From an uncultured Acidobacteriota bacterium (GTDB taxonomy: Bacteria > Acidobacteriota > Thermoanaerobaculia > Gp7-AA8): a stretch of DNA of 64,000 bases. Shown piece after piece: positions 14,690 to 64,000 of the stretch (the stretch's first letter is position 1; each line of letters starts with the position of its first letter). Location: contig CAVUKB010000005.1 in the NCBI GenBank assembly GCA_963741955.1, positions 1,056,001 through 1,120,000 of the forward strand, written 5' to 3'. The notes under the pieces were generated by a model, which saw only the letters and a list, made by a program, of their open reading frames with translations, had not been told where the DNA came from and did no database searches. Position numbers and translations under genes: made by a program.

Positions 14690-14745
14690 GGCCTTTCGCT
14701 TCTCAGCCCATCATCCTGCCGATCCCAGGTCGATGCGGAATTCCA

Positions 14746-15115: not shown

Positions 15116-15116
15116 C

Positions 15117-31889: not shown

Positions 31890-32190
31890 TAGCCCCCGCC
31901 GTCAGGCGGGGGTTCGGAAGTCCCCGGAATTCAGGTGTGAGCCCCCGAAAGGGGGCGGTACCTCAGCAGAGTGCAGAATCGAGAGGTCCAGGTCCTCCGC
32001 ATCACAGGCTTGGGATAGCCCGAAGGGCGGCACCTTTGTTTAGCCCCCGCCGTCAGGCGGGGGTTCGGAAGTCCCCGGAATTCAGGTGTGAGCCCCCGAA
32101 AGGGGGCGGTACCTCAGCAGAGTGCAGAATCGAGAGGTCCAGGTCCTCCGCATCACAGGCTTGCGACAGCCCGAAGGGCGGCACCTTGTT

Positions 32191-32371
32191 AACCCGCATT
32201 TCTCACACCGTCTCGTCGCGAGGAGGCGGAGAGTGGCTTGGATGCAAGGCGCGCCCGGCTTCGGCAACGAAGGCATAGTGGTGACTATGTCGAGGAGCCG
32301 AAGCCGGGCGCAACGCAGCAGACAGGCCGCTATCCATCTCCGCAGCAGAGATGGTGTGAGAAATGCGGGTT
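32191..32371. mobile_element. 181-bp palindromic MITE-like element, copy 2
   Basis: Near-identical to 31709-31889. Confidence 0.65.
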
Positions 32372-32663
32372 TAGCCCCCGCCGTCAGCCCGAAGGGCGCC
32401 ACCTTGTTTAGCCCCCGCCGTCAGCCCGAAGGGCGGCACCTTGTTTAGCCCCCGCCGTCAGGCGGGGGTTCGGAAGTCCCCGGAATTCAGGTGTGAGCCC
32501 CCGAAAGGGGGCGGTACCTCTGAATTTCGTGAATATCGAGCAGCGGCCATGGAGGGATGCAGGCCTCGGTTCACCCTGACTGCGGAGCAGTCCCTTTGAA
32601 ACAACGAACGCACGCTATGACTGCGCGCTCCTAGATCTTCCCCGTTCTCTCGTGATCAAGAAC

Positions 32664-48600: not shown

Positions 48601-48704
48601 ATGGGGCCGCTCCCTTTCGGAAGCGGAAGGACAGCAGCCCTTAAACTACTGTCGAATTTAGCCACCTCGCTTCAATGGGGCCGCTCCCTTTCGGAAGCGG
48701 AAGG
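42690..48704 (-). CRISPR. CRISPR array, ~82 repeats and ~81 spacers (manual count), type I-G-like repeat
   Basis: 36-bp repeat GCTTCAATGGGGCCGCTCCCTTTCGGAAGCGGAAGG; minus strand ends ATTGAAGC and has a CCGCT...AGCGG hairpin; spacers about 31-41 bp; leader on the cas2 side. Confidence 0.98.
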
Positions 48705-48921
48705 GGTCCGTGTGCAACTCTCGTTTTTCCAATTCGATGGGAGGTCGTTTGCGAGCGGTGGCCGGCCATGCGACCGGATTTCAATGGGCAACTCTCTTCG
48801 ATTGTCAAAGAGCCCCGCCATTCCGCCGCGAGCGGTGCCCGCCATCATCTCCGGCACCGGACCGCTCGCACACGCGAAGCCGGGGGACGCGCACGGCCAG
48901 TCCATCATTCGCTCCATTCTC
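48705..48921 (-). promoter_or_regulatory. CRISPR leader
   Basis: Between cas2 and the first repeat; AT-richer; TTGACA on the minus strand; TGCGAGCGGT/ACCGCTCGCA inverted pair. Confidence 0.7.
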
Positions 48922-49215
48922 TCAGAAGATCTTCGGGCCGGGAAGCTCGAAGTTGCGAGGCCTGCCGAGGACCTCGATGCCGCCCACCACCGCGGGACTG
49001 CTCTTCCCCAGATCGATGATCAGCACCTGGTCCTCGTGATGATGAATCAGATCGTCGATCCGGCTGCGCAGCACCGCATGCTGCTCCGCCGTCAGATCGC
49101 AGCGGAACACGCTCAGCTGCACGTGCTCGCCGAACCCCTGCATCTCGCGGAAGATGCGCCGCCATCGCTTCGGCGAGGAAATGTCGTACGTCACCAGATA
49201 ACAGCGCAGCTGCAT
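48922..49215 (-). CDS. cas2: Cas2
   Basis: YLVTYDISSPKRWR, GEHVQLSVFRC, DQVLIIDLG. Confidence 0.95.
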   Translation of the reverse strand: MQLRCYLVTYDISSPKRWRRIFREMQGFGEHVQLSVFRCDLTAEQHAVLRSRIDDLIHHHEDQVLIIDLGKSSPAVVGGIEVLGRPRNFELPGPKIF

Positions 49216-49222
49216 CGGCGCC

Positions 49223-50893
49223 TCACCGGATCCGGTAGGGAACGTACCGCTCGATCTCCCCCATCAGCCACCGCGCCACCAGCCTAGCCTCGATCATGAA
49301 GAGCCGCCGGTACGCACAGCGGTAGCCGAAGAGCGGATGCGTCACCTCGATCGCCATTCTCCGCTCGTACGCCTCCAGCATCCGTCTGCGTGCGGCGGTC
49401 TTCAGCAGCATTCCCCCTTCGACTTCGTAGAAGTCCGAAGGCGCGATCTCTCCGTTGTTGATCACCCCGATCACGGTGCTGTCGGCGACCACGGGCCGGA
49501 ACGGCTCCATCAGGTCGAGCGCGAGCGCCGGCTTCCCGTACTTCGGCGTGTGATAGAAGCCCATCATGGGATCGAATCCGATCGTCTCGAGCGTGGTGAC
49601 CCAATCCTTCGTCAGGAGTGAATACGCGAACGAGAGGAGGGCGTTCACCCGATCCTTCGGCGGACGGCGGTTGCGGCCGTCGAGCTCGAACCCTCCGAGG
49701 CCGTCCCGCGCTTTCAACATCGACGCGAATCCCGCGTAATAGATCCGAGCCGCGGAGCCTTCGATACCGAGGAGCTCTTCGAGATCGTTCGAACGGGCGG
49801 CGGCCGCAGCGAATCCCTTGAGAATCTCGAGATCCCTCTCGTCGACGCTTCCATTACGCCGCAGCATCACGCGGGAGTTGTCGATCTTCGCCGCCACGAT
49901 CTCGCGCGCGACATCCACGCGACGCCCGGCATCCCGCGCCGCCGCGAACTGCTCGATCCGGAGCTCCACGTTCTTGTGCGTCGCACCACGAGTGATTCCG
50001 TGCAGCCATCCCGTCCCGCTCATGTGCGCGATCAGGATTCCGCGCCGGAGGCACTCGCGAAACACCGAGGGGGACGCCTGCGCTGCGCCGACGAGCACGA
50101 GCTGCGAGACGCGCACCAGAGGAACGCTCCCCTCCTCCTTTCCCTCGCGCATCACACGGAGGCGCGATCCGCAGAGACGCACCACGCTCCCCGGCTCCTG
50201 CACGATCAGCGGTTCCGTCCCGTCGTTAACCACCGCGATCGGCCTCACTTTCTCCGCGCCCCTCCGAAGGAAGTTCACCTCCTCGGGGAGACAGATCGAC
50301 ACGAGCGAGCAGCGCGGGCATTTCGGGTTGTCTTCGAGCGGCGGCGGAATCCGGTCGTTCGCGAGCGTGGCGCGCATCGCTCGGAGGAGGTCCATCGTCC
50401 GCGCGACGAGATCGGCCGTGAAGCGGACGCGCACCCGATCGCGCGACGCGTTGAAGTAGAGAAGGCCTTCGTTGCATTCGTACCCTTCCTCGCGGAGAAG
50501 GAGTCCCTGCGCGCAGAGCTGAACCCGCTCCGGCTCCCACGCTCCTGCAGCGACCGGCGGGCGCTTGCCGCGCTTGTAGTCGACGGGACGGACGCGTTTC
50601 CCGTCGCGCTCGATGAGATCGATGACGGCGGTGAGCCCGAGGGTCTCGCTGGTGAGGTGAACTGATCGCGTGTGAAGCGTGACGCGCGAACCCTCCGGCC
50701 GGTCGACGTTGCGGTGGACGTGTTTTCCCTCGATCGTCTCGACGTTGTCCTTCCACTCCCCCTGGGTCCATTCGAGATACGCGAGGCGCGGACAGTATGT
50801 GAATTCGTTGAGCATCCGCGCAGGAATGTGCGCGGGGACGCTCGTCAGTGGCTGCGGCTTCGGTTCAGGCGGCTCGAGGATCGTTTCGCTCAT
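49223..50893 (-). CDS. cas1: Cas4-Cas1 fusion (type I-G hallmark)
   Basis: YCPR, VDYKRG, QLCAQ, CPRCSLVSIC (Cas4); GIEG, RRPPKDRVNALLS, GFYH, LDLMEPFRP (Cas1). Confidence 0.95.
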   Translation of the reverse strand: MSETILEPPEPKPQPLTSVPAHIPARMLNEFTYCPRLAYLEWTQGEWKDNVETIEGKHVHRNVDRPEGSRVTLHTRSVHLTSETLGLTAVIDLIERDGKRVRPVDYKRGKRPPVAAGAWEPERVQLCAQGLLLREEGYECNEGLLYFNASRDRVRVRFTADLVARTMDLLRAMRATLANDRIPPPLEDNPKCPRCSLVSICLPEEVNFLRRGAEKVRPIAVVNDGTEPLIVQEPGSVVRLCGSRLRVMREGKEEGSVPLVRVSQLVLVGAAQASPSVFRECLRRGILIAHMSGTGWLHGITRGATHKNVELRIEQFAAARDAGRRVDVAREIVAAKIDNSRVMLRRNGSVDERDLEILKGFAAAAARSNDLEELLGIEGSAARIYYAGFASMLKARDGLGGFELDGRNRRPPKDRVNALLSFAYSLLTKDWVTTLETIGFDPMMGFYHTPKYGKPALALDLMEPFRPVVADSTVIGVINNGEIAPSDFYEVEGGMLLKTAARRRMLEAYERRMAIEVTHPLFGYRCAYRRLFMIEARLVARWLMGEIERYVPYRIR

Positions 50894-50920
50894 GATCCCG
50901 CAGCGTAGCGCCGCGGGATG

Positions 50921-51724
50921 TCAGTTTCTGTCAGGGAGTGTGCGGGAATCGTCGGACCTGTCGGACTTGTCGGACCTGTCCGACCTGTCCGACTTGTCCG
51001 ACTTGTCCGACCTGTCCGACGATTCGTACGCGCGAGTCCCGGAGCACTGTGGATACGCACGACACCCCCGGAAGCGGCTGCCGGCACGCGGACCGTTCCG
51101 GACGGTGCGCAGAACCATCGGCTCGCCGCAGCGGGGACACGCCAGCACTTCCGCTTCCTGCGAGGCCGCGCGGGCTTCGGTGCGCTTCCGGTAGAGCCGC
51201 TCGGTGAAACCGCCGTTTCGTAGAAAGTCCTGCTCGAGTCGCGCGATCTGCCGGCCAAGAAGATAGATCGCCTGATTGACCAGGCAGAGCATGATGTTGG
51301 CGAAGATCGCCGGTAGAGCTCCTTCGAGCTCGGCGAACTGGAACTCTCCCGATTGCAGGCGCCGGCGGGCATCACGTGCCTCGGGTGAGTCCTTCTCCCA
51401 GGCCCGAAGCCGGCGGTGTCTCAGAAAATCCTCGTAATCGAGGAGCAGCTCGCCGAGGCTGGCTCGCGCGACGTTGGTGAGCTTGAGCTCCGTCTTCTTC
51501 GACGTCGCCGACGCGAGACTCCCCTCGGCGATGTTCTGCCGTCCGCTGCGCGCCGCCTGGACCATCTGGTCGTGTGTGCGCGAGCGCTTGTCGATGAAGC
51601 GGTCGCAGAAGACGACTGTGGCGTCGTAGATCTTCTCGGCTGCCTGAAAGCTCCGGAGACGGCGGTAGCCGCCATGCGGCGGGATCAGGCCCGGAGGCTC
51701 TTCGCCTTTGTGCGCGTTCGCCAT
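50921..51724 (-). CDS. Four-helix-bundle protein (TIGR02436-like) with suffix domain and topoisomerase-type C4 zinc finger
   Basis: DQMVQAARSGRQNIAEGS, VARASLGELLLDYEDF, GGFTERLY, CPRCG...GCRAYPQC. Confidence 0.88.
   Translation of the reverse strand: MANAHKGEEPPGLIPPHGGYRRLRSFQAAEKIYDATVVFCDRFIDKRSRTHDQMVQAARSGRQNIAEGSLASATSKKTELKLTNVARASLGELLLDYEDFLRHRRLRAWEKDSPEARDARRRLQSGEFQFAELEGALPAIFANIMLCLVNQAIYLLGRQIARLEQDFLRNGGFTERLYRKRTEARAASQEAEVLACPRCGEPMVLRTVRNGPRAGSRFRGCRAYPQCSGTRAYESSDRSDKSDKSDRSDRSDKSDRSDDSRTLPDRN
50951..51020. repeat. 9-mer tract (GACCTGTCS/GACTTGTCS) x~7
   Basis: Directly visible at the 3' end of the four-helix gene. Confidence 0.9.
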
Positions 51725-51794
51725 ACGGTCCGGAGCATACCTCGGCGATCCGGGGGCTCTACGGTGGGTGGAATTCGGCCGTGGCACCGTCAAT

Positions 51795-51830
51795 CTGTCG
51801 GACAGGGTCGACAGGTCCGACAGGTCCGAC
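51795..51830. repeat. 9-mer tract (GACAGGTCC) inverted relative to 50951-51020
   Basis: Directly visible upstream of the four-helix gene. Confidence 0.8.
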
Positions 51831-51837
51831 GCGCGGT

Positions 51838-52250
51838 TCACGCCGTCGCGCGCTTCTTCATCGCCTCGTCGAGAAACGCGGCGAACGACTCGCTGGAGAG
51901 ATCGAAATCTTCTTTCATTCTCAAGCGGATCTTGTCGGTCCTCTCGTTGCGGCGTGAAACATTCACGGAGCTCGGAAGCCCTAATTTTTCCGACAGTGAT
52001 TCGTCGGAATCGTATCTCGCGGCCCCGAGTCGTTCGGCGAGAGCTGCGCCTTCGAAGGCCTCCATTTTCCCCGCTTGATCTCGATGATCACGGCGTTCCC
52101 CTGCGGGTCGAGTGCGAGAAGATCAACGGTCTCGGACGTCGGGAATGATCACCTGTCGTCCGATCACCAGGAGCGGTTCACGGAGAATAGAAGGATCTGC
52201 GGCGATCCGCTCCTCGAGCCTCTCTTCGAGGAACTTCTTGGAGAGGCACA
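51838..52250 (-). pseudogene. NucS/DUF91-like PD-(D/E)xK endonuclease remnant
   Basis: LEERIAADPSILREPLLVIGRQVIIPDVRDR*, then a frameshift near 52125 to DLLALDPQGNAVIIEIKRGK, then a short C-terminal ORF. Confidence 0.65.
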
Positions 52251-52486
52251 CGGCTCTCCTTCGAAGTCGATCAGAATTGCAGCGGCGACAAGCTCTCTAG
52301 CCCCAATGGCCCGAACTAACTTAAGGGGCACTGTGGGTGTTCACAGAGCCGATGCGCGGAGTTACTGCGCATCTGCCGCAGGTGTCGCCTCGTTGCGTTC
52401 TGAAGGCGATCTGCGCGGCCACGGCCGGAGCCGTGGCGCCCCTCGGAGAGGGGATCCTTCGCTGCCCAGCAAGCTCGCGCAGACTC

Positions 52487-54010
52487 CTAGCTCGTTACGG
52501 GGCGAAAAAGACCCAATCCGAACGTGCTCGAGTGGCCCAGGCGGATCGGTCCGATTACCTGAGAGGGGAATATCAGCCGAACGAACTGCCCACGCCGGTC
52601 ACCGATGAACCCCTTCCTTCCTCCTTCCCGACGGGGAACGTGAACCGCTACCCACAGAGGATCGTCAACCCTCTCGACCACCACGTCGTCCGCGGCTGCG
52701 ACACCGCGCAGGCGCAGCTCGCGTCGAACTTGAGCCGCGATCGACTCGCTCTCGCGCTCTTTACCGCCGCGAAGATGGTGGCGGGGTGGGACATAGGGAG
52801 TGACGGACTCCCAGATCCGAGAGCCGATGCCATCGAACCCTGGCGGCGGCGGGACGGCGCGATCGAGGGGAATCAGCCTGACCTTCCACGCATCATTATC
52901 CGGGCCTGCGACGGCCCAGGAGAGATCGCGTGCCGCTGCGCAAAGCATCGCTTCTTGCTCCGGTTCATCGAATGCCCGGCGATCACGCCACGCGAGCAAC
53001 CGCGTCGGCTGCCCGTCCTCCAACCATACGAAATACTCGACATGGCGGTGCCCCTCGAGCGGGGCGCCGTCGGCGTCCTTGCCAGTCATCTCCGCGATAC
53101 CTTCTCGGATGCTGCGATCGGCACGACTCCAGGCCGGGTTCGGGACTCCGGTCTTCAGCCTGAGAAGCTCTCGAACCACAGCGCCTCGGAACCGCGAGGT
53201 GAGCCGCACGATCGCGCGCGGATCCGGCGCGACGTTCCACCCAATTGCGAACTGGATCAGGTGACAATCGGGCCGATGCACTGGTACGCGTCTGCGTTCG
53301 TGCGAGGCAGAGCGCGGTGGTCGAACCGCGTAGAGCCATTGCGCGCCGGGAGGGACGGCTCGCTTCACGGCTTCAGGATTGTCGGTCGTCCGCTCGATGT
53401 CGTCGCGCGTGGCTTCCTCGAGCGGCGACAGCACGGGGACGGCACCTGCCGTGCGCTTGTCGACTAGCGTGCAGTTAGGTGTTGGGGTGTCGTCTGGCGA
53501 ACCGACGACGCAAATGCGCGTGAGTGTCTCGGCGCGCCCGAACCAGGTCATGCGCTCGAGGCACTGTGCGAGCAGTGCGCGGAGCTCCTCGGTCCAGTCA
53601 TCACCTTCGAGGAACCACCACACGGGCGACTCGGGAGGGACGCACCAGTAGTTGTCCTGCACGAGGCTCGTGCCGTAGGTGCGCGCTCCCGCCTTCTTCT
53701 TCTCCGCCGGTCGCCAACCGAACTCGGTCGGATGGTACTGCCTCAGCGGGCTTCCCTTGCGCGCATCCGGTGGGAGATGGAACGCATACGTGCTCCTGCA
53801 CAGCGCGGCCTGCAGTTGTTCGAGGTTCGCGAGGTCCGGCTGTTCCTCCATCTCACGCGCCCACTGGTACCAGCGCGCGGTGACTGCGCGAACCAGGCGC
53901 CATGGGCTCGGCGGCCACTCGCCGTGCGGGTCATCAAACGGATTCACGCGCCACGGCGTGGCGTGGTAACGCCCCAGCGGGAACTCTTGTCGGAGGACGA
54001 TTTGCATCAC
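52487..54010 (-). CDS. csb2: Type I-G Csb2 (Cas5/Cas6 fusion)
   Basis: GRYHATPW, EWPPSPWRLVRA, WFGRAE, WESVTPY, GHSSTFGLGLF G-loop. Confidence 0.92.
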   Translation of the reverse strand: MMQIVLRQEFPLGRYHATPWRVNPFDDPHGEWPPSPWRLVRAVTARWYQWAREMEEQPDLANLEQLQAALCRSTYAFHLPPDARKGSPLRQYHPTEFGWRPAEKKKAGARTYGTSLVQDNYWCVPPESPVWWFLEGDDWTEELRALLAQCLERMTWFGRAETLTRICVVGSPDDTPTPNCTLVDKRTAGAVPVLSPLEEATRDDIERTTDNPEAVKRAVPPGAQWLYAVRPPRSASHERRRVPVHRPDCHLIQFAIGWNVAPDPRAIVRLTSRFRGAVVRELLRLKTGVPNPAWSRADRSIREGIAEMTGKDADGAPLEGHRHVEYFVWLEDGQPTRLLAWRDRRAFDEPEQEAMLCAAARDLSWAVAGPDNDAWKVRLIPLDRAVPPPPGFDGIGSRIWESVTPYVPPRHHLRGGKERESESIAAQVRRELRLRGVAAADDVVVERVDDPLWVAVHVPRREGGRKGFIGDRRGQFVRLIFPSQVIGPIRLGHSSTFGLGLFRPVTS

Positions 54011-55110
54011 GCGCTCTCTTCCGGGCCCTCGTCATCTTCAGGGCTGCTGGTGCTGTCGGCCTGACCTTCACGATACAGCTCTTCACGCGGCCAGAACACG
54101 TCGGTAATGGACTCCTTGCTGAAGCCGGCGTTGGCGATTGCTGTCCGGATGTCGACTTCGATCCCGACTTCCTTGCCACCGCTCTGAATCGTCGTGCAGA
54201 GGAGGTAGCAGCCGGACCTGTAGCGGAACGGCGACTCGAGGAGCCTTCGGATCTTCCACAGCGCGATAGCGACGAGCAACTCCTGTTGCTTGTCCGAGAG
54301 ACCCAACGTGGAGCCGCCCGTCTTTCGCCCAAAGGACCGGATCAGACTGACGTCCAGGACGAAAGTGGCCCGAATCGATTCAGCGGTGGCGTCATCGACC
54401 GCGAAGATCGGCTGGCCGGATGTCGTCTTTCCGAGCCGGTCGAACTTCACGCCGGAGCGATCGACGCGCCCCGCGCCGAACGCCTCGAGGTGCGCCGTCA
54501 GCGCGCGCGGGATCTTGATCTGCCACTGTGGGAACAACACCCCATGAACGAGCGAGTTAGGGTCGGCTTCAAAGATCGTCTTGAAAACATCCCACCACTT
54601 TGCAGGCGGCGGATGGGCCTTCGAGCTTCCGGGCAGGACGATGCCGAACCTGGTGACGAGGTCGTCCTCGAACGTGTCGTCACCCTTCGCTCCGCCGTTC
54701 CTCAAAGGCACGCCGTCGAGGAAGTACGAGGACGCGATGCGGTGGCCTTCGGTGAGGCTCGTAACGACGACCTCGCGCTCGTTCGTGGGTTCCTTACCTT
54801 CCGTCGTGTTCGTGACGCACCGGAGGTACGGCAGACCATCGAGATCCTCGACGAGGTCGAGGTCGTGCGCGCTACGCTGGCAGACCGACTCGAGATGGTT
54901 CGCCATGCTCGCGGCGCTGTCGACGATGCAGACGTTCTCGGTGCCGCCGTCCTTGCGCGGAGCCTTGTAAATCACATGACCGATCTCCGGGAACCCCGCA
55001 GGCTGGAATCGGTCACCAACGATCGGCTCGAGCGTCGCCGTCAGGACGAGCGGCGACGCCCCCTTCAATACCTCGGCCGGGGTAAGTTTCTTCTTCTCTG
55101 CTTCAGACAT
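54007..55110 (-). CDS. csb1: Type I-G Cas7 (Csb1)
   Basis: DRFQPAGFP, VDSAASMANHLE, EGHRIAS, DPNSLVHGV, RSGVKFD, RSGC. Confidence 0.9.
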   Translation of the reverse strand: MSEAEKKKLTPAEVLKGASPLVLTATLEPIVGDRFQPAGFPEIGHVIYKAPRKDGGTENVCIVDSAASMANHLESVCQRSAHDLDLVEDLDGLPYLRCVTNTTEGKEPTNEREVVVTSLTEGHRIASSYFLDGVPLRNGGAKGDDTFEDDLVTRFGIVLPGSSKAHPPPAKWWDVFKTIFEADPNSLVHGVLFPQWQIKIPRALTAHLEAFGAGRVDRSGVKFDRLGKTTSGQPIFAVDDATAESIRATFVLDVSLIRSFGRKTGGSTLGLSDKQQELLVAIALWKIRRLLESPFRYRSGCYLLCTTIQSGGKEVGIEVDIRTAIANAGFSKESITDVFWPREELYREGQADSTSSPEDDEGPEESA

Positions 55111-57340
55111 TTGCTTCGCCTCCTTGTCGCCGGCGTCGAGGACGAAGCCAGCGCTCGAACAGGACCGTCCGATCGCGGTCCGGAATGCTGAACAACAGGG
55201 CCGCGGCGAGGCGGTCCGGATCATGTGCGTTCCAGGGGACATCGAATGACGCGACGCGCGCGCCGGCCATCGCGTAGCGGCTGCTCGCGAGCCGTGTCGC
55301 CGCGTCGAGGTTGCCGGATCGGATCAGCGTGACGAGCGAGCGCGCCGCTTCCGTGGTGCGTGCGCCGGTCGCCTCCGTAAGAAGATCGCTCGGCGAGAGG
55401 TCGCGGACGACCAGGGGACGCTGGTCGACGAGGGGCTGCATCAGCCCGAGGAGGACCAGTTCACCTTCCGCTCGCGGAGCCTGGACCTTCCCATGGATTA
55501 AACCGCGGGCCTCCTGCGGGATCCTTCTCCAGTCGAAGAGCGCGAGCCGCGAGAGCCATGCTGAAAACAGCGACTCGTCGACGTCGGCGGCGAGCCACTG
55601 ATGCACGTGCGCCGTCGTAGCGGGTAGAGGTGAGCGGCCGGAAGGGAGTTTCGTTTGCGTGGCGTCCAGCCTGGCTTCTTCGAGAAGTCTTCGCGAGAGC
55701 ACTGAACCCATGACACGAGCAAGCTTACCCGGCCCCCATACCCATCGCGCCGGAGCGATCTTCGCGTGTTCGAACCATCCTGGCTTGGTGGTCCAGTCGT
55801 ACTCGTACTTCCCGTTCCTCTCCCTGGCCCACTCCACACCAAAGCGAAACGCCGCAAATGGAAGCGCAGCAGGAAAGGCCGACACGAGTGACAACGCGAG
55901 CCGCGCCTCGGCTCCGGCTTGCTCGTCCGCAAACAGCGATGGCAGCCATTCGAGTGGCAGCGGCTCCCATCGAACCTTGCCCTCGCGGAAGCTGCGATTG
56001 CGGTCGATGCGATTCAGTGCAGCGGTGATCGCGTCGAGCATCTCGATGGCCGCCTCGGAGCGGCCGGGATCTGCCGCGACGTCGAGGAGGGCCGCTTCGA
56101 TGGGACCACGGAGTCCCACGAAGCGCTTGCCATCGCGGGGAAAGCCGCGCTGTTCGATTAGTGCGGTGACGCGTTCGAGCGTGAGAGAGGTGGAGACACT
56201 ACTCCCACCGGCACCAGCATCGAGAGCGAAGCGAGCTTCCAGGCGCGGTTCGAACGTGTTGACGCTGGTAGTCCTGCCGAGCGTGAAGCGGCGAAACTCG
56301 CTGACGCCCGCATCTACGCCACGCTTTCGAATCGCCGTCGCGAATTCGGCGGGCGTGAGTGATCCACGTCCATGCAGTTCGGCTCGGCCGCGCAAAAACA
56401 GCGCGCTCGCTTCAGCGAGCGTCATCGGTCGGGACCACAACGGGGTCCAGATCTCGCCACGGAGACGATCGGCCTCCTTTTCAGCGCTCGCAGCGATGGG
56501 CTGGGTCACGAAGGGGAACGCACCGACGGCACGCGTGCGAGCACCGAGGCGTCGCGATGCACCGCCTGCGAGAAACGCCAATCCCTCGCAGGCGAGCACC
56601 ATCGCCCAGGGAGAGATCAGCCCCTCGCGCGCAGGGGACTGGCCGCTGTTGTAGAGCTTCGTCGCTTCGCTGAACCAGGAACCGGCGACGAGCCCGTCGA
56701 CGAGCCAAGAGACCGTACGGCTTACGAGCAGAGCCTCGAGCTCACTACGATTTCTCTGCAATCTGGCTGGGGCTTCCCGTTCGTACGTGCCGAGGGCTTT
56801 CTTCTCACGTTTCTCGCGTGCGGCTTTCTGCTTGTCGGTTTCGTCCTTCTTTGGCTCCCTGGCCCCGGGAGCCGCTGGAGAGAGCGCTTCGATCGCCTTT
56901 GCCCACCCATTCGAGAATGCGCGCTTCCCCGCGTTTCCTCCGCTGCCGAAAAGGGGATTGAAGCTCACGCGCGCATGTGGCACCGCGTGCGCGGCGAAAA
57001 CCTCGAGTTCCCGCTCCTCAGCAGAGGCTTGCCAGAGAGCGAGCGGCAGTCCTGACTTCGCCTTCGTTCCCCGCTTCTGCTTCTCATTCCAGCGTCGATC
57101 GTACGTGGTCCATGCGCGTTCGCTGGCAACACGCACGAGCTCGTCGAGCAGTGCATCCAGCGTCGGCGGCCCACCGACTACGTGCAGCACGTCGTCGCGC
57201 CACGCAATGCGCGTGCTCGGCCACTTCCGGCTGAGCACACGAAGGAGGCCGAGGGACGCGAGGTAGTTGCCGAGGCTGTCGGGCGAGAGGCCGGGCAGCG
57301 GGAGAGCTGTAAGGCGAGGTTCTCGTCGGAGCGCGGTCAT
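55103..57340 (-). CDS. csx17: Type I-G large subunit Csx17 (Cas8g)
   Basis: LGNYLASLGLLR, LFGSGGNAG, SPWAMVLACEG, FPF, EIWTPLW, RGVDAGVSEFRRF. Confidence 0.88.
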   Translation of the reverse strand: MTALRREPRLTALPLPGLSPDSLGNYLASLGLLRVLSRKWPSTRIAWRDDVLHVVGGPPTLDALLDELVRVASERAWTTYDRRWNEKQKRGTKAKSGLPLALWQASAEERELEVFAAHAVPHARVSFNPLFGSGGNAGKRAFSNGWAKAIEALSPAAPGAREPKKDETDKQKAAREKREKKALGTYEREAPARLQRNRSELEALLVSRTVSWLVDGLVAGSWFSEATKLYNSGQSPAREGLISPWAMVLACEGLAFLAGGASRRLGARTRAVGAFPFVTQPIAASAEKEADRLRGEIWTPLWSRPMTLAEASALFLRGRAELHGRGSLTPAEFATAIRKRGVDAGVSEFRRFTLGRTTSVNTFEPRLEARFALDAGAGGSSVSTSLTLERVTALIEQRGFPRDGKRFVGLRGPIEAALLDVAADPGRSEAAIEMLDAITAALNRIDRNRSFREGKVRWEPLPLEWLPSLFADEQAGAEARLALSLVSAFPAALPFAAFRFGVEWARERNGKYEYDWTTKPGWFEHAKIAPARWVWGPGKLARVMGSVLSRRLLEEARLDATQTKLPSGRSPLPATTAHVHQWLAADVDESLFSAWLSRLALFDWRRIPQEARGLIHGKVQAPRAEGELVLLGLMQPLVDQRPLVVRDLSPSDLLTEATGARTTEAARSLVTLIRSGNLDAATRLASSRYAMAGARVASFDVPWNAHDPDRLAAALLFSIPDRDRTVLFERWLRPRRRRQGGEANV

Positions 57341-58224
57341 GGCGCGAGCCTCCAGAAGCCGTCAGGCTCAATCGACCACCGGAGCGGGCTGTTCGAGGAC
57401 GAGCCGGGCTGCCAGAAGCACGAGGCTTGGTCAAGTCTGCGAATCGAGCCCCGATCCCAGCCAGCGAGTAACTCCAAGGCACCGCTCAGCGACGCTCCAG
57501 GATAGGCGTGGGCCCACGCCGTGGACGCTTCCAGTTGAGGCAGATCGGCATCGAGCGTTACCGCCCCACCGAACGCTCCCCCTTCCTTCACGAGGTCGAA
57601 TGCGATGCGGCGTAGACGGCCCAAGCCATAGCGGGTGTCACCGCCAACGAACAGTGTGTCGCTCCCGTCGAAGCGACGCCGGTCCGCCGGGTACCTATCC
57701 TCGGCGTTCACCCTCCGCATGAACACGTAGCCGAGCATCGCTACGGGCCCCGCGTCACGGCCTCGCACGTCTCGCCACCGCGCTTCGATGCACTCGGTCT
57801 CTCGGAGCGAGCCATCGTCAGCTGCGTCGGTGCTTGCGTCAATTGACGTACCTGCTCTGGTCGAGAGGAGGCGGCGACGGAAGTTTCGATCGCCCACTGG
57901 CTGCCGGGCCTGATCCTCGCGTGCCCACGCGAGCCCCTCCCCGGTGAGGAACATCGGCAGCCACACTTGCCAGCCCGCTTGCAGCTTCTCCGCCGGGAAC
58001 AAGTAGGTGAAGCGATAGTCCGTCTGCAAGTTCTCGCCGACGGTCTGGTACTGCGGCTCCTTCCCGTTCCGTGCTTCCCGTCGCGACAGCTCGGCCGTCA
58101 ACGCGCCCCACAGCGCGCGGGCGGGCACGTAGAGCCGCGTGCGATTGAGCGAGCCCGCAGGCGGCATACCGACATGCAAGGGGCCGTCGAGCTGCCAGAT
58201 CCAGCGAAAGAGTGACCAGCTCAC
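57337..58224 (-). CDS. Type III RAMP protein (Cas5-group / Cmr3-like position)
   Basis: PLHVG, TRLYVPARALWGALT, GSLRETE, VGGDTRYGLG G-loop. Confidence 0.75.
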   Translation of the reverse strand: MSWSLFRWIWQLDGPLHVGMPPAGSLNRTRLYVPARALWGALTAELSRREARNGKEPQYQTVGENLQTDYRFTYLFPAEKLQAGWQVWLPMFLTGEGLAWAREDQARQPVGDRNFRRRLLSTRAGTSIDASTDAADDGSLRETECIEARWRDVRGRDAGPVAMLGYVFMRRVNAEDRYPADRRRFDGSDTLFVGGDTRYGLGRLRRIAFDLVKEGGAFGGAVTLDADLPQLEASTAWAHAYPGASLSGALELLAGWDRGSIRRLDQASCFWQPGSSSNSPLRWSIEPDGFWRLAP

Positions 58225-58610
58225 GTCGTCCTCGCTCCACCACCCTGCGCAGCCTTGGCGTGATAGCGAGCGTAGACCAGCGCGCGGTGCAGGAGGTCCC
58301 GCGCGAAGAGCAGCTTGTCGAGGTCACCTGCGAGCTGCTGGAGCGCCGCGAACAGGTCGTTGTTCGTGGTCGCACCGAGCAGTGCGTTCCGCTGGTTCGG
58401 CTGCTGGCGAAGGAAAGTCGCGAGCTCTTTGCTCGTCGTTTGGCCCCACTGCTTCTCACGCGCATGGAGGTAAAGGAACAGCGCGTAGACGCCCTGCTCT
58501 TCGAGTACGCCGAGGGACTTGGTGATGCTGTTCTCGGTGTCCTTGTTGCCCGACGATGCTAGGTTGGCACCAAGCTTCGCGCAAGCGGCGTCGAGGTTCT
58601 GCACGGTCAC
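58221..58610 (-). CDS. cmr5: Type III small subunit (Cmr5/Cas11-like)
   Basis: 129-aa helical protein; LGVLEEQGVYALFLYL, LVYARYHAKA; follows cmr4. Confidence 0.75.
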   Translation of the reverse strand: MTVQNLDAACAKLGANLASSGNKDTENSITKSLGVLEEQGVYALFLYLHAREKQWGQTTSKELATFLRQQPNQRNALLGATTNNDLFAALQQLAGDLDKLLFARDLLHRALVYARYHAKAAQGGGARTT

Positions 58611-59563
58611 TGCGCACCTCCAACCGCGAGGACTTCGAGGCGGCCCATGCCGCGCGTGCCCATGCCGCCGATGCCAAGCGCTGCGAGCAGCGGGTACGCC
58701 TTGGCGACGACATCATGGACCTGCTGCGCGTTCGTCACCGTCGGTGCGTTGCGGCCCTCCTTGAAGTGGCGTGGATCGCGGCAGGTTACGTCCCACGTGA
58801 GTACCGCCCCGCGCGGAATCGCCTCGTACGTGAAGAGAGCGCGGTCCTCCGCAGCGCCCGTCGCCGGGTTGATGGCCACCGAGGTGCGTACCTCAAGGTT
58901 GCTGTTGACGACGTGGCCAAAGAGCTTGTCGGAGACGAGCACGAGCCGCTCGACGACACGCAGGTCCTTGTACAGGTCCTCGCGCACGCCGAAGGCCTTG
59001 ACCGCGTCCTTCACGGCTTGCAGCCCCGACCACGACTCCGCTTCGAGCTGCAGCCACCCGAGGTTGATGGGCCCCTTCTTGCCGCCACGCTGGGCCTTGT
59101 TCTGGCTCACGTCGTCGACGGTCGCGCTCGCACCCACGAAGCGCAGCGCGCTCGGCGAGGTCACCCACAGCGGGCCCTCGCGCGACGCGACTGGAAAGAG
59201 CACCACCTGCGCATCGCTGAACGCGGCGAGACCCGCGAACTTCTTGTGGCCGAAGACAGCGTTGATCGGCCCCGCACCGTCGTTGTTCGCCGAGCCCTGG
59301 CCCGCGTCGTCGGGGTAGTACTGTCGCGTATCGTTCGGCGTACGAGCGTCCTCGAGCGCCATCGCCACGTAAGCGCGGTGGACACCCGCGAGGCTCGAAC
59401 CAGGAATCTTCGGGATGCGCGTGACGGGATCGCGCACGATGGTGTTGTCGACGCGCCCGAGCCGCGCGCCTCCCGTCCCGATGTGAATCGGGTCGATCGC
59501 GATCCCAACGGTGCGAAATACTTGAAAACTGCACTGCTTCGTCTGCTGTTGGCTATTGCTCAT
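58607..59563 (-). CDS. cmr4: Cmr4 (Cas7 RAMP)
   Basis: PIHIGTG...VDNTIVRD, PKIPGSSLAG, FSDAQVVLFPVAS, ALFTYEAIP, GGMGTRGMG. Confidence 0.9.
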   Translation of the reverse strand: MSNSQQQTKQCSFQVFRTVGIAIDPIHIGTGGARLGRVDNTIVRDPVTRIPKIPGSSLAGVHRAYVAMALEDARTPNDTRQYYPDDAGQGSANNDGAGPINAVFGHKKFAGLAAFSDAQVVLFPVASREGPLWVTSPSALRFVGASATVDDVSQNKAQRGGKKGPINLGWLQLEAESWSGLQAVKDAVKAFGVREDLYKDLRVVERLVLVSDKLFGHVVNSNLEVRTSVAINPATGAAEDRALFTYEAIPRGAVLTWDVTCRDPRHFKEGRNAPTVTNAQQVHDVVAKAYPLLAALGIGGMGTRGMGRLEVLAVGGAQ

Positions 59564-62517
59564 GGGGTCACTCCGATCGTCTGCTTGAGTACGTGCAGGT
59601 GCCAGCTCAAGACACGCTCGAGCAGGCCATCACGGGCTGCTTGTTCAAGGTCCTGTAGCTCCCGACCTCTGGCGTTCCACTCGTTGGCGAGCACTGCGTG
59701 CACCCAGTCGTTCCACGCTGCCTCGTCCAACGCGCCGTCGGAATCGGTCCAGCGCTCGCGCGCTTCGCGCAGTGACTGCTCGACCGCGCGGGCTGCCGTG
59801 GGGCTCGGCACGATCCTGCGAACCTGCTCCCAGATCGTACGGCGTCGGTCCCATTCGGACAGCGGATGCACCTGCACCGGCTCGAAGCGGCGAGCGGTCG
59901 AGTCGAGGAACAGCGACGCGAAGCGCGAAGGCTCGACGCAGACCTCGTCACCGAGCTTGAGGTCCGCGGCACGTCGATACACGACGGTAGTGCCATCGGG
60001 CCGAGGCGCGGTGAAGTCGCGTGGCTCGCGCTCCGCGCCGCCGACGGCGAGGTTCGGGTAGTAGACATCGTCCCGACCGTCCGCGAGTTGCGCAGGCACT
60101 TCAACGTCTTCGTGTCTCTGGCCGGGGCGTTCGAACGATAGCGTGGTGGTTCCTGATTGCGTCACGGCGTGCGCGACGCGCCATTGCTCGACACCGCGTG
60201 CTCCCATGTCGTCCTCCACGTTGCGCGTGGCCTCGATGACCGCCTGAAACGGCGTCTTGCGTGGGAAGCCGACCACGCCGATGCTCAGCGGAAGGCGGTC
60301 CCACACGCGCGCCATCTCCTTGCGCCACTTCGTGATGACGTGCCCCACGCACACCGCCTCGGCTCCGAGAGGAACGAGCACCCGGAAGCGCTCGGGGTTC
60401 TCTTCGAGCACGATGAGCGGACGATACGAGGCCAACACGCGCTCAGCGGTGGTGACACTCTCGATGGCGAAGCGCCGCCGCTGCCCATCGTCGCCTCGCG
60501 CCTCGAACTGCATCCCCGTAAGAATCGTCGCGTCTCCGTCCGGACCAAGCACGCGCGCGAGGTTGCAAACCGTCACGAAGTCGCTCGAGCGGCGCAGGAT
60601 CTCGAACGGCGCGTTCGGGGCAGTCGGCAAGGGTCCGGCGTAGACCTCGCCGACCCGCAGACCATTCGTGTCGCCCGAGAGCGTAAGGCTCAGCCGCTGG
60701 GTGCGAGTGCCGCCGTCGCCCGAGACGAGCTGGCGGAACTCATCGAGCGCTTCGGCAAAGAACGCACGCGTCGTGCGCCAGAAGCGATGCACGCGCCCCG
60801 GCGAGGCGTTCTTGCGAAAAAGCTGGTGCGTCAGCCAGGCGGCACGGGTCGTGTCGTCGAGCGAGGACCACGCGGGAGCGCCTGCGCGATCTTCGACGAC
60901 CTTCTGAAAGAAGTCCTCCAGCGCGGTCTCGTGGGCGAAGCCGTCGTTCAGAGTCTCCAGGACTGCATCCGACAGCCTGCCTTTATTCAACATCGGCGAT
61001 TTGACGAAGCCTTCGACGTGGGTGCGGAGCGAGTCGCGCGGCGCGTTCGCGTCGATGGCCGTAAGCGAAGTGTTGTTCGCCCGCCACTCGACCACGCTCT
61101 GCGCCCGCAGCGAGTCGACGTGCGTGCCATCGAGCCAGCCTTCAAGGCCTAAGCTAAACGTCAGCAGGGCGACGCGGTCGTTCGCGTCGGCGACCTCGCT
61201 GATCCAGATGGTGTCGCCGCCGTTCTTCTCCCACGCCGCGCGCCGTCCCGTGCGCCGCTCATAGCAGCTCTTCGAGACGTCCTGCTTCCGGTCGCTCTCG
61301 TTGTTCGACTGCGCGCCCGCGCGAACCAAGGACACCGGGCAGACGTGCTTGCCCGTACCGCCGTCGCTCGCGATCGACCACGCCCGGTGAACCGGTACTT
61401 CGAGCACGCGGCGCGCCTCGGCCAGCTCGCGCGACATCGCGACAAAAGAGCGCGTCGATGACGAGAGCCGTACCAGCGGCGGCGTCTCGAAGGCGTGCGA
61501 TCGCGCGAGTTCGTCGACGCGCATCTCGATGCCGGTGCGCAACGTCTCGGCCAGCGTGTCGTCCACACTGTGTTTGCCATCGAGGCGATGACCGGGAAAC
61601 GTAAACGAGATCGCACGCTCGTCGCGATAGACGCAGGCACCGAGGGCGAGGTCGACCTCGATGAACGCGCAGACCTCATGGAAGAACGCAGCGATCGCGT
61701 CGCGCGTGCCTGTCCAGTCTCCGATGCGCACGGCGCGGGACTCGTAGTGCTCCGCGCCGAGGCCCACCGTGAGCACGCGCCAGCGCGTGTTGGCCTTGCT
61801 ACCGTTGCCCGTTTCAAACGAGGTGCCCAAGAGCACAGCGCCCGCCGCTGCAGCCTTGAATAGGGCGGATGCAATGAAGGACTGGTCCCACAGCGTGACG
61901 TCGTTATTGGGGACGCGCGTCTCGGCGAGCGTGCTCGCAAACGCCTCGCGCAGCCAGCCCGACGGGCCGATTGCAGCGTCACGCCACGTGCACCATTCGG
62001 CGAGGTGCGTCGGGTCCTTCACCCGCGCAGCGAGACCGTCGATGAGCGCACCGATCTGCGTCTCCGTGTTCGACCAAGCATTCTTGGCAAGGATCGCAGG
62101 CGGGGTGGAGCCCAGAAGGTTCCGGACCGGGCGACCGAACGCGGTCGCGAGCCACGTCTGCCCCGTCGGCTGCTTCTGGTAGTCGGCGGGCGTGTTCTTC
62201 TCGATGCCCGAGGCCATCGTATGCGCAGCCTGCAGGAGGCCGAGCACGCCATCACTACGCTGTCGGTGCTTTTCGAAGAGGTCGTTGGGCGAGATGGTCT
62301 GCGTTCCGAACGACGGCAGCGTCCCGAACTTGCTGTACAGGTTCGACGCCCACGTCAGCTCGTTCCACGTCGTGCCACCCGAGGTCGCGTTGGACGCCTG
62401 CTGCCGAACGAAGTCGGGGTGCGCCTTGCCCGCCATGTGCAGCCAGCCGATGGCCTCGCACGCGAGGAGCGCAGCGCGCTGGTCACGCAGGGGCTGGAGC
62501 GGATCGTTCGCGCTCAT
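59560..62517 (-). CDS. cas10: Cas10 of Csx11 / type III-C type, catalytic motifs degenerate
   Basis: ETRVPNNDVTLWDQ, VYRDE, TIWISEVADANDR, KNASPGRVHRFW; position between cmr6 and cmr4. Confidence 0.82.
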   Translation of the reverse strand: MSANDPLQPLRDQRAALLACEAIGWLHMAGKAHPDFVRQQASNATSGGTTWNELTWASNLYSKFGTLPSFGTQTISPNDLFEKHRQRSDGVLGLLQAAHTMASGIEKNTPADYQKQPTGQTWLATAFGRPVRNLLGSTPPAILAKNAWSNTETQIGALIDGLAARVKDPTHLAEWCTWRDAAIGPSGWLREAFASTLAETRVPNNDVTLWDQSFIASALFKAAAAGAVLLGTSFETGNGSKANTRWRVLTVGLGAEHYESRAVRIGDWTGTRDAIAAFFHEVCAFIEVDLALGACVYRDERAISFTFPGHRLDGKHSVDDTLAETLRTGIEMRVDELARSHAFETPPLVRLSSSTRSFVAMSRELAEARRVLEVPVHRAWSIASDGGTGKHVCPVSLVRAGAQSNNESDRKQDVSKSCYERRTGRRAAWEKNGGDTIWISEVADANDRVALLTFSLGLEGWLDGTHVDSLRAQSVVEWRANNTSLTAIDANAPRDSLRTHVEGFVKSPMLNKGRLSDAVLETLNDGFAHETALEDFFQKVVEDRAGAPAWSSLDDTTRAAWLTHQLFRKNASPGRVHRFWRTTRAFFAEALDEFRQLVSGDGGTRTQRLSLTLSGDTNGLRVGEVYAGPLPTAPNAPFEILRRSSDFVTVCNLARVLGPDGDATILTGMQFEARGDDGQRRRFAIESVTTAERVLASYRPLIVLEENPERFRVLVPLGAEAVCVGHVITKWRKEMARVWDRLPLSIGVVGFPRKTPFQAVIEATRNVEDDMGARGVEQWRVAHAVTQSGTTTLSFERPGQRHEDVEVPAQLADGRDDVYYPNLAVGGAEREPRDFTAPRPDGTTVVYRRAADLKLGDEVCVEPSRFASLFLDSTARRFEPVQVHPLSEWDRRRTIWEQVRRIVPSPTAARAVEQSLREARERWTDSDGALDEAAWNDWVHAVLANEWNARGRELQDLEQAARDGLLERVLSWHLHVLKQTIGVTP

Positions 62518-63314
62518 GCAGCGCCTCCCAGTAGCTTCGTCACTTCGTCGCGAACGTTGGGGAGCTTCCCCTCACGTGAACCATCGCGCCATCGCAGGTG
62601 CGCCTTCGTGACAATGGCGACTCCCCAGCCCGAGGTGCGCTTGGCCGAGAATCCATACTCGGTGATGAGAGCCTCGACGGCATCGAGCAAGAGCAGCACG
62701 GCCTTCTGTCGGTTCACGTTCGCCGTCGTCGCGCCGGGAGCCGGTGCATAGAGAACGCGCAGCGTGCCGGTCGCACCCGGCGGTACGACCTCGTAGAGGA
62801 TCGGCTTGGTGCCCGACTTCTTTGTGCGGTCGTGCGGGTTGATGACCTCGAAGCCGATCTGTTCGAACCACGTGGGGCGAAACCCGAGCGCGCCGCGTTG
62901 AAAGTGCTTGTCCTCATCGCGCTCGTTGCCGAAGAGGTGGACGACCTCGGGCGAGTCCTCCCACTTGCTCAGCGCGTTGTTGCTCCCTTCGAGGTGCGCG
63001 AGCAGCCCGGTCCGCATCCGTGCGGCCCAGCGCAGGAGCCCCTTCCAACTCGAAGCGGGCATGAACGGCGCGCCAAAGACGTGGTCGCGGTGAACGGGGT
63101 TGTCGAGGACGTGGAACGGCAGATCATCCTTCGAGAACCACGGAGCTTGGAACTGGAAGGTGACGGCGAGCGCGAACCACTCGCGCAGCAGCGTCGGCGA
63201 AGACGGCTCGTAGGCGGCGTGCCCCTTCGGAGGGTTCGACTGGTAGTCGCGACGCGCGGCGTCCTTGTCGTCCTTCAGCTTCGCGAGAAGTGGATCGATG
63301 TGCTCGAAAATCAT
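62514..63314 (-). CDS. cmr6: Cmr6-like RAMP
   Basis: DNPVHRD, ASSWKGLLR, LFG, EVINPHDR, PILYEVVP, YGFSAKRTSGWG. Confidence 0.8.
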   Translation of the reverse strand: MIFEHIDPLLAKLKDDKDAARRDYQSNPPKGHAAYEPSSPTLLREWFALAVTFQFQAPWFSKDDLPFHVLDNPVHRDHVFGAPFMPASSWKGLLRWAARMRTGLLAHLEGSNNALSKWEDSPEVVHLFGNERDEDKHFQRGALGFRPTWFEQIGFEVINPHDRTKKSGTKPILYEVVPPGATGTLRVLYAPAPGATTANVNRQKAVLLLLDAVEALITEYGFSAKRTSGWGVAIVTKAHLRWRDGSREGKLPNVRDEVTKLLGGAA

Positions 63315-64000
63315 CGCACGCTCTCCGTCGGCGGGCAGAGCCGGGCGAGCAGGGCGTCGCCCGAGACGAACCAGTCGTTGGACGCTGCGGGTTCGCTCCA
63401 GATGGGCCGCAACGCGTCGCGCACGGCATCAAGCTCGTTGGTCTTCTCCACGAACCCGAAGGTGCGCTCGGGCGACTTGAAGCTGAAGACCTTCTTGCTG
63501 ACTCCTCGGCTGCCTGCACGCCAGGAGTCGCCTTGGGCCGATGAGGACTTCGCCTCGGGGCGCCCGAGGACCTTATTGAAAGAGGACGCTACATCGCCGG
63601 TGCGCCTCAGGTGCTTCCCCTCGACGAACCACATGTGGCTGCACGACGCCCAGGCCGCGCCGTTGACGGTGGGCTTCTTCGTCGACGCGTTCACGTAGCT
63701 CGCGAGTTGCTCGCGTGGATGCGTCGCCGACGCCGTGCCGACCCACCCCACGAGCCCGAAGTCGGCGTGCTGCACCTTGTTGTTCTGCTCCGACGGCTTG
63801 AGCACCGTTTTGCCGCCGAGCGCGCCGAACTCGCAGATGAGCCGCAGTGTCAGCTCGAGGAGGGCCCACTCCTCGGCCTTCACCGCGCGAAGTGGCGTGA
63901 AGCGCAGATGGAACGTCGTGCCCTTCGTCAGCTTCGACGCAATGACGGCGCCCTGCGCGTTGCGCACGTCGAAGCGCACCTTACGCGCCCAGCCCGTGCA
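63311..64000 (-). CDS. cmr1: Cmr1-like RAMP, 3' part (5' end outside the window)
   Basis: Frame is open to the window edge (CTGWARKVRF); FGALGGKT, DFG. Confidence 0.75.
   Translation of the reverse strand, partial: CTGWARKVRFDVRNAQGAVIASKLTKGTTFHLRFTPLRAVKAEEWALLELTLRLICEFGALGGKTVLKPSEQNNKVQHADFGLVGWVGTASATHPREQLASYVNASTKKPTVNGAAWASCSHMWFVEGKHLRRTGDVASSFNKVLGRPEAKSSSAQGDSWRAGSRGVSKKVFSFKSPERTFGFVEKTNELDAVRDALRPIWSEPAASNDWFVSGDALLARLCPPTESVR

Follow-up and report, generated by a model that had tools for sequence, protein, structure and literature searches.

A type III-C gene set between cas3g and csx17 of a type I-G operon

We analysed a 64,000-nucleotide stretch of DNA, hereafter the window, from the genome of an uncultured Acidobacteriota bacterium (source genome G000; window G000:C5:1056001-1120000), which carries genes of a type I-G and a type III-C CRISPR-Cas system in one run. 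Positions above 64000 are window-equivalent coordinates. Genes were named by profile searches with Pfam, NCBIfam (TIGR) and PADLOC models. The run reaches the window with nine minus-strand genes in the order cmr1-cmr6-csx11/cas10-cmr4-cmr5-cmr3-csx17-csb1-csb2 (Table 1). A sequence-only reading of the window, made without database searches, had described this string as a type III-C-like module joined to type I-G Cascade genes, with an overlap at every junction. The open reading frames (ORFs) and profiles bore out the genes, their strand, their coordinates and the overlaps, including that at the type III-to-type I junction, and the TIGR, Pfam and PADLOC models confirmed the identities of both halves. 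Two entries were completed: the gene listed only as a RAMP (57337-58224) is real and could be named cmr3, and cmr1, present as described, runs out of the window to 64240 and has a full length of 309 aa. The Cmr1 domain match (TIGR01894, residues 11-96) lies mostly past base 64000. Pfam and NCBIfam gave no name for the 129-aa (Cmr5) and 295-aa (Cmr3) proteins; PADLOC profiles named both.

The same reading had found no helicase between 42 and 64 kb and had placed the type III module where cas3 would be expected. The first statement holds inside the window. The second was wrong, because cas3g begins 237 bases past the window edge, with the module between it and csx17; the other possibility offered, an insertion that separated an upstream cas3 from csx17, is supported by the position of cas3g. 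The apparent lack of cas3 arose because the window ended at 64000. The product has a helicase core and an HD domain and scored 597.9 bits against TIGR02621 (cut-off 400), and cas3g alignments in 26 relatives extended to residue 928-934 of 939.

A script run over the genome showed that all nine junctions of the ten-gene run from cas3g to csb2 overlap. The overlaps are of 4 bp (ATGA or GTGA), as at cas3g/cmr1 and at cmr3/csx17 (ATGA, 57337-57340), with the exception of csx17/csb1, where the overlap is 8 bp. The csb1 start is the ATG at 55110, which is preceded by an AAGGAGG Shine-Dalgarno sequence. The type I-G set is complete (Cas8g, Csb1, Csb2, Cas3g, Cas4-Cas1 fusion and Cas2), and Csx17, its signature subunit, scored 478.8 bits against TIGR04113 (cut-off 150). 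The usual direct cas3g-cas8g order, which is not a formal criterion of the subtype, is interrupted by six genes over 6.9 kb. These genes are the III-C set in the order cmr1-cmr6-cas10-cmr4-cmr5-cmr3, which the 2015 classification is said to treat as defining for III-C, and Csx11, the III-C Cas10, scored 281.3 bits against TIGR02682 (cut-off 248.95).

Table 1. Genes and features of the locus, in the order of transcription
Feature	Position	Strand	Size and description	Profile support
cas3g	64237-67056 (G000:C5:1120237-1123056)	-	939 aa	TIGR02621 5e-179; TIGR01587 1e-32; Cas3_HD PF18019
cmr1	63311-64240 (in window 63311-64000, 3' 690 bases)	-	309 aa (full length); Cas7-like RAMP	TIGR01894 1.8e-14; PF03787 6.9e-18; PADLOC Cmr1 1.7e-10
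cmr6	62514-63314	-	266 aa; RAMP	PADLOC Cmr6 4.3e-59; PF03787 6.4e-13
csx11	59560-62517	-	985 aa; type III-C Cas10 large subunit	TIGR02682 1.9e-83
cmr4	58607-59563	-	318 aa; backbone RAMP, predicted target-RNA nuclease	TIGR02580 2.7e-33
cmr5	58221-58610	-	129 aa; Cas11 small subunit	PADLOC Cmr5 8.4e-36; CAS-III-C effector_SS 6e-35
cmr3	57337-58224	-	295 aa; Cas5-like	PADLOC Cmr3 9.7e-71
csx17 (cas8g)	55103-57340	-	745 aa; type I-G large subunit	TIGR04113 3.8e-143
csb1 (cas7g)	54007-55110	-	367 aa from ATG 55110	PF09617 1.6e-26; TIGR02570 5e-10
csb2	52487-54010	-	507 aa; Cas5-Cas6 fusion	TIGR02165 1.9e-27
four-helix-bundle gene	50921-51841	-	306 aa; between csb2 and cas4/cas1	TIGR04258 1.8e-21; TIGR02436 3.4e-07
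cas4g/cas1g	49223-50893	-	556 aa; fusion	NF049935 1.4e-216
cas2	48922-49215	-	97 aa	TIGR01573 1.6e-09
putative leader	48705-48921	-	cas2 to first repeat	position only
CRISPR array	42690-48704	-	82 repeats of 36 nt, 81 unique spacers of 31-41 nt	

One array and one Cas6-like protein

The genome G000 is 99.1% complete in 16 contigs, and all 82 matches to the repeat (up to 3 mismatches) fall in the single array at 42690-48704. The repeats are identical in length, and the single variant copy is found at the end distal to the putative leader. A script scan of G000 for other CRISPR arrays gave only two tandem-repeat tracts, C4:696022-697991 and C5:52532-54207, which were rejected as arrays, being 86-bp tandem repeats without spacers; the two tracts, of 23 and 14 copies, respectively, have a common GCAAATCGCGCAA core. 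Comparison of the spacers with their own genome and with all fetched loci, a viral collection not being searched, yielded matches of 16-22 bases near the E-value limit and no target or self-target.

The only cas1 match in G000 is the cas4g/cas1g fusion, and the three RAMP (PF03787) matches are cmr4, cmr1 and cmr6 of this locus. No match to TIGR01877, PF01881 or PF10040 was obtained in G000, although control genomes responded to these profiles, so that the lack of a stand-alone cas6 noted in the window extends to the whole genome. Csb2 is the only predicted Cas6-like function found in the genome. In G000, the III-C module is without a separate array, cas6 or adaptation genes, which is one feature of type I/type III pairs that share crRNA, and any III-C function must therefore use I-G parts. 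Ordinary co-location would have brought a cas3, a cas6 and a separate type III array together upstream; since only the cas3 is present, the arrangement is not ordinary co-location.

On the minus strand, the repeat has an 8-bp hairpin, whose loop is GAAA, followed by CCCC and the terminal ATTGAAGC. The characterised I-G Csb2 cleaves 4 nt after the hairpin and leaves an 8-nt 5' handle, according to the available text of PMC9638904, and the geometry of the window repeat matches this exactly. The repeat also fits the 36-nt, TTGAAGC-tailed I-G repeat type described in the available part of PMC11237760. H411 of the window Csb2 was conserved in 31 of the 33 C-terminal parts that were aligned, and there is a GHSSxFGxG loop; the catalytic histidine reported for I-G Csb2 is H503 (PMC9638904).

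Csx11 and Cmr4

The AlphaFold2 model of Csx11 had a mean predicted local distance difference test score (pLDDT) of 72.8 and a predicted template modelling score of 0.72. With this model, every PDB match listed by Foldseek was a Cas10/Csm1/Cmr2 chain or a complex containing one, with a best E-value of 6.4e-6. A profile of 12 Csx11 sequences found no relative among solved structures, giving a single chance match (E 0.56). It is the fold search that identifies the predicted structure of Csx11 as a Cas10. A GGDD-type cyclase motif was not present in the window Csx11 in any of the motif variants searched, nor was a conserved aligned motif found in the 12 sequences. No HD dyad was found in the window protein either: the N-terminal motif GWLHMxGK reads H-M rather than H-D in 12 of 12 sequences, with Met where the HD nuclease has Asp. 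The N-terminal domain was modelled poorly, with pLDDT below 50 over residues 39-54, 70-95 and 100-136. The Csx11 clade of the window (4 of the 12 aligned) has lost two of the four cysteines of a zinc finger at residues ~391-421, CPVC being replaced by CPVS and CxVC by a single Cys.

Cmr4 could be aligned to solved Cmr4 chains, and it keeps the Asp at the 'VVD' position of P. furiosus Cmr4, which we take to be the catalytic residue. Since Csx11 lacks both the cyclase motif and the HD dyad, site-specific RNA cleavage is the sole output predicted from the sequence, and no cyclic-oligoadenylate signalling is expected. In wording, absence of the cyclase motif from Cas10 is the III-C feature given in PMC11229360. 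The portion of that survey available describes III-C systems as lacking cyclase sites and known ancillary effectors, with about half of them keeping the HD domain. We found no characterised III-C system or biochemical study in the literature searched. As far as profiles and motifs can tell, both halves of the locus belong to their subtypes, the sole departures being the split cas3g-cas8g adjacency and the missing HD dyad.

The arrangement is present in a second assembly and in a second locus

The stretch is contained in two public runs of one soil metagenome study, one of which may be the source sample; no RNA run was listed as containing it. A Logan contig of 6602 bases is identical to L010 3266-9867 and includes the cmr3/csx17 junction (L010 5338-5341), and another of 5281 bases spans the cas3g/cmr1 junction, again with no differences. 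These contigs represent a second assembly, not a second sample. Word depth along the locus was even, at about 9.5-10.6, and the GC content across the III-to-I junction was flat (0.63-0.67). Runs X2 and X3 yielded short pieces alone, with no junction spanned.

The independent metagenome contig L107 carries cas3g-cmr1-cmr6-csx11-cmr4-cmr5-cmr3-csx17-csb1-csb2-cas4/cas1 in the same order. Its proteins are 69-88% identical to those of the window, and its junctions overlap too. Between the window and L107, the ratio of nonsynonymous to synonymous substitution rates (dN/dS) was 0.076-0.246 in all ten genes, with dS of 0.54-1.17. These values indicate that both the I-G and the III-C halves are under purifying selection.

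Contents of the cas3g-csx17 junction in relatives

A search with csx17 gave 41 metagenome loci, 32 of them close (61-76% identity) and 26 with a readable cas3g-csx17 junction. Cas3g and csx17 are directly joined in 21 of the 26. The remaining junctions hold a III-C module (L107), a III-D-like module (two loci) or a KilA-N gene (two loci), so that a type III module is present in 3 of 26. The III-D-like inserts (L095:834-10002 and L118:747-10002) are 9.2-9.3 kb long. They encode a short Cas10 whose GGDD motif is intact, a Cas5 similar to Csx10, large Cas7 fusions of the III-D kind and a CARF-HEPN protein (PADLOC 'CARF, Csm6-like', 1.8e-223) that contains an RNDVAH motif. In L095, the module is followed by the I-G genes and then by a 45-repeat I-G-type array. 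The KilA-N gene (L093:9111-9998 and L108:~870-1760; 295 aa; PF04383, 1.7e-20) sits in the slot with overlapping stop and start codons, and it could be a regulator or a remnant of a mobile element.

Type III modules of at least two kinds have been inserted at this junction; one looks signalling-competent and the other does not. The presence of two type III subtypes and a KilA-N gene at one junction points to a recurrent insertion site, and the recurrent use of the slot points to selection for an RNA-level layer on I-G immunity.

III-C cassettes elsewhere and the origin of the locus

The Csx11 family comprises at least 681 proteins at E ≤ 1e-10 among 8000 candidates scored. We kept 80 Csx11 loci from GTDB species representatives, and the III-C genes were collinear in the order of the window in all 80, with all six genes found in 55. 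The closest III-C module in a genome, that of L012 (78% identity), stands alone, with hsdR of a type I restriction operon before it and housekeeping genes after it; the I-G genes of that genome lie on another contig. I-G and III-C genes also occur together in other arrangements. In L039, a locus of a Rhodospirillales metagenome-assembled genome, cas3g-csx17-csb1-csb2 ends 3 bp before cmr1, and in Lujinxingia vulgaris cas3g-csx17-csb1-csb2-cas4/cas1-cas2 is followed by an array and then the III-C cassette. The arrays beside the III-C cassettes in L029, L048 and L050 have I-G-type tails (..TTGAAGC).

A plasmid search gave 3 records, the best being a Thermus plasmid. On this plasmid (L140, Thermus thermophilus pHB5018b, NZ_AP024271.1:3123-31373), a Csx11-type cassette is broken by IS3 and IS701-like transposases and adjoins type I-B-like genes (TM1802 family, cas6, cas3'' and cas4), a decaying type I/III-C neighbourhood.

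Among 127 genomes of the order to which the window belongs, csx17 and csx11 were each present in only one, G000, which indicates that the locus arrived by horizontal transfer. In the csx17 tree, the window and L107 lie apart and are separated by starred branches, and the approximately unbiased test did not reject a grouping of the two (p 0.079; the group was named after the tree had been seen). A quick tree of Csx11 only placed L107 with the stand-alone L012 (98), and the tree of six III-C proteins placed the window with L107, weakly (81/74). The III-C insertions of the window and L107 may have had a single or a repeated origin.

A probable composite locus with two effectors on one array

We consider it probable that this is a composite type I-G/type III-C CRISPR-Cas locus, horizontally acquired, in which two effectors are served by one array and one processing enzyme. 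The ten genes cas3g-[cmr1-cmr6-csx11-cmr4-cmr5-cmr3]-cas8g-cas7g-csb2 would form one predicted operon, with cas4/cas1-cas2 and the array following. Cas4/Cas1-Cas2 would load spacers into the array, and the Cas6-like C-terminal domain of Csb2 would cut the pre-crRNA 4 nt after the hairpin, giving crRNAs with an 8-nt AUUGAAGC 5' tag. These crRNAs would then serve both the I-G Cascade and the III-C Cmr-like complex. The former, with Cas3g as an integral subunit, would find and degrade DNA flanked by a protospacer-adjacent motif (PAM); the latter would pair with complementary transcripts independently of a PAM, and Cmr4 would cut them. The type III part may in this way act as a back-up when PAM or seed mutants escape the type I part. 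Co-transcription, the sharing of crRNAs and both interference activities are inferences, whereas the gene content, the coupling, the single array, the single cas1 and Cas6-like function, the recurrence on L107 and the purifying selection were observed.

This functional model was taken from the precedent of Marinomonas, where, according to the available text of PMC5576922, a type III-B system draws on type I-F crRNAs and so acts against the escape of phages. The subunit role of Cas3g follows the I-G system of PMC9638904, in which Cas3 is described as an integral subunit required for stable R-loop formation. The observation of the sequence-only reading was confirmed and its interpretation partly supported: the dual DNA/RNA system on one array that it had proposed fits the single array, the single adaptation module, the lack of cas6, the recurrence on L107 and the purifying selection. 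The composite reading is further favoured by the repeat geometry and by the recurrence of I-G/type III pairs in 3 of 26 readable junctions, in L039, in Lujinxingia vulgaris and in the 12 of 50 Csx11-bearing genomes (50 searched of the 80 loci) that also carry csx17.

Several points weigh against the composite reading. I-G Csb2 remains on the cleaved 3' hairpin of the crRNA (PMC9638904, available text), so a hand-over of crRNA to the type III complex is not a given; a preprint does report, in its available part, that Csb2 is also active as a stand-alone enzyme (10.1101/2022.08.19.504415). RNA cutting alone, with neither an HD dyad nor a cyclase motif, may not confer immunity. The adjacency of cmr3 (the RAMP gene of the sequence-only reading) and csx17 recurs on L107, but the identical architecture was found only this once more, in 1 of 26 metagenome junctions, and of the 50 Csx11 loci from GTDB whose sequence reaches 1.5 kb or more past cmr3, none has csx17 there. 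The stand-alone module of L012 implies that a III-C module needs no I-G operon context. The count of 12 csx17-bearing genomes in 50 has no matched baseline. Finally, the Logan contig across the junction comes from a run that may be the source sample.

The III-C genes might instead be a passenger cassette, with the cas3g-cas8g junction as a permissive landing site and a III-C complex that does not cooperate with the I-G effector and is perhaps idle for want of usable crRNA. Consistent with this, the same slot carries unrelated cargo (KilA-N in 2 of 26 junctions and another type III module in 2 of 26), the closest relative, L012, stands alone beside a type I restriction operon, and the six-gene III-C order is kept in 80 of 80 loci, as if the genes moved as a unit. 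However, each of the six III-C genes has a dN/dS within 0.076-0.246 when the window is compared with L107, the 4-bp overlap is retained at both borders of the insert, and I-G and III-C are linked in three other architectures. The absence of an array, cas6 and cas1 for the III-C module anywhere in the genome also argues against a passenger, as its function must use I-G parts. We regard a passenger cassette as unlikely.

A more intimate relationship would be a true hybrid effector, in which the III-C complex uses Cas3g as its DNA-degrading arm on nascent transcripts or acts through I-G proteins in some other way. In its favour, Csx11 is without both known Cas10 catalytic motifs, cas3g is directly coupled to cmr1, and Cas3 is integral to I-G effectors even without target (PMC9638904, available text). 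However, among the Csx11 loci whose sequence extends 1.5 kb or more upstream of cmr1 (41 loci), none had cas3g immediately before cmr1, and among those extending as far downstream of cmr3 (50 loci), 2 had cas3-like matches within 3 kb, and only weak ones (25-29% identity), indicating that the family works without Cas3g. Moreover, III-D-like modules with a cyclase motif and a CARF-HEPN protein occupy the same slot, so that the slot implies no dependence on Cas3. A hybrid effector is in our view improbable. So, to the same degree, is its bolder form, in which the cas3g-cas8g junction is a dedicated cargo slot that has repeatedly captured RNA-sensing type III modules (III-C, and III-D-like with CARF-HEPN) and the III-C complex, on binding a transcript, recruits or unleashes the co-translated Cas3g on transcribed DNA; if true, DNA would be degraded in a PAM-independent and transcription-dependent way by a genuine hybrid of type I and type III effectors.

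A chimeric assembly of III-C and I-G halves from different organisms, a concern raised for the junction at 57337 and for a record that comes from a soil metagenome study, is very hard to reconcile with the 6602-base contig from a second assembler that crosses the junction with no differences, the even depth, the flat GC content and the same gene order on the independent contig L107. The suggestion that the type III module replaced cas3, leaving a Cascade that binds DNA and does not cut it, had only the lack of a helicase inside the window in its favour and is refuted by the intact, full-length cas3g (helicase and HD) coupled to cmr1.

Comparison with known systems

It is well established that type I and type III systems can share crRNA, and many type III loci are without cas6 and arrays. 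The canonical I-G system of Thioalkalivibrio sulfidiphilus, as described in the available text of PMC9638904, has the same six I-G genes in the same order as the window, a 36-nt hairpin repeat with an 8-nt tail, and Cas6 fused in Csb2. The window differs in having III-C genes between cas3g and cas8g and the four-helix-bundle gene between csb2 and cas4/cas1. Stand-alone III-C cassettes have the same gene order as the window's, no cas6, cas1 or array of their own and, as PMC11229360 reports for III-C in its available text, a Cas10 without a cyclase motif. Those cassettes are free-standing or lie beside an array, whereas that of the window is embedded in an operon with stop/start overlaps on both sides, and its Csx11 clade is short of the two zinc-finger cysteines.

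In Marinomonas mediterranea, a horizontally acquired type III system uses type I crRNAs and can in this way cover PAM-escape mutants (PMC5576922, available text), as is proposed for the window. In that species, the I-F and III-B systems are separate loci, and III-B comes with an active Cas10 and with adaptation genes of its own; the present locus has a single operon, a single array and a Cas10 without recognisable catalytic motifs. Lujinxingia vulgaris TMQ2 (L138/L029) and L039 resemble the window in carrying I-G and Csx11-type III-C genes on one strand around a single I-G-type array. However, III-C follows the array in L. vulgaris and csb2 in L039, neither splits cas3g from csx17, and their I-G proteins are only 24-41% identical to those of the window. 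Type I-D is also of mixed type I/III ancestry, with Cas3 and a Cas10-like large subunit in one locus (10.1101/2020.04.18.045682, available text), but it forms one complex from one subunit set, whereas the window encodes two sets, Cas8g/Cas7g/Csb2 and Cas10/Cmr1,3,4,5,6.

Full-text literature searches returned no description of a type III module between cas3 and cas8g/csx17, although the 'hybrid' loci in PMC11229360 or PMC11237760 may include such a layout: the available text of the latter mentions seven 'hybridized' myxobacterial systems, and that of the former mentions hybrid loci called by CCTyper with no detail. Three features appear to be new. A complete type III cassette is embedded in a type I operon, where it separates Cas3 from the large subunit and has translational coupling at either side; another, unrelated type III module and a KilA-N gene occupy this junction in other loci; and III-C is paired with a Cas5-Cas6 fusion from which alone its crRNA could come. 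The known type III modules that borrow type I crRNAs are separate loci, whereas here the putative borrower lies inside the operon of the donor. Nothing else in the genome could supply crRNA to III-C, so the sharing hypothesis can be tested with a single 18-kb construct. The locus joins two poorly understood parts, a III-C system with a catalytically empty-looking Cas10 and a Csb2 that is normally retained on the crRNA, and its value is that of a compact natural test bed rather than of a new principle.

Neighbouring genes and other repeats

A promoter scan of 48600-52600 gave no promoter-like site and 4 terminator-like sites, compared with 2.5 expected, and an Rfam scan of 41000-64000 matched no family. 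The four-helix-bundle gene carries 9-bp tandem repeats (50942-51029) in its 3' part, which encodes the C-terminal region, and TIGR04258 is a suffix domain. Weak matches to its product occupy the corresponding position in L124 and, in L047, lie before cmr1 on its upstream side. Upstream of cas3g (L011:4139-8732, window-equivalent 68139-72732) lie genes for RhuM (PF13310, 1.1e-117), a type I hsdM methylase and a WYL/WCX/HTH regulator; neither hsdR nor hsdS was seen among the ORFs examined there. The stand-alone III-C cassette of L012 likewise adjoins a type I restriction operon.

Other repeats in the window are short tandem or interspersed ones at 14723-15117, 27993-28220 and 32038-32479, with GATCCTCGAT-type units inside long ORFs. 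The same tracts include a 37-nt unit, GTTTAGCCCCCGCCGTCAG..., in 5 copies.

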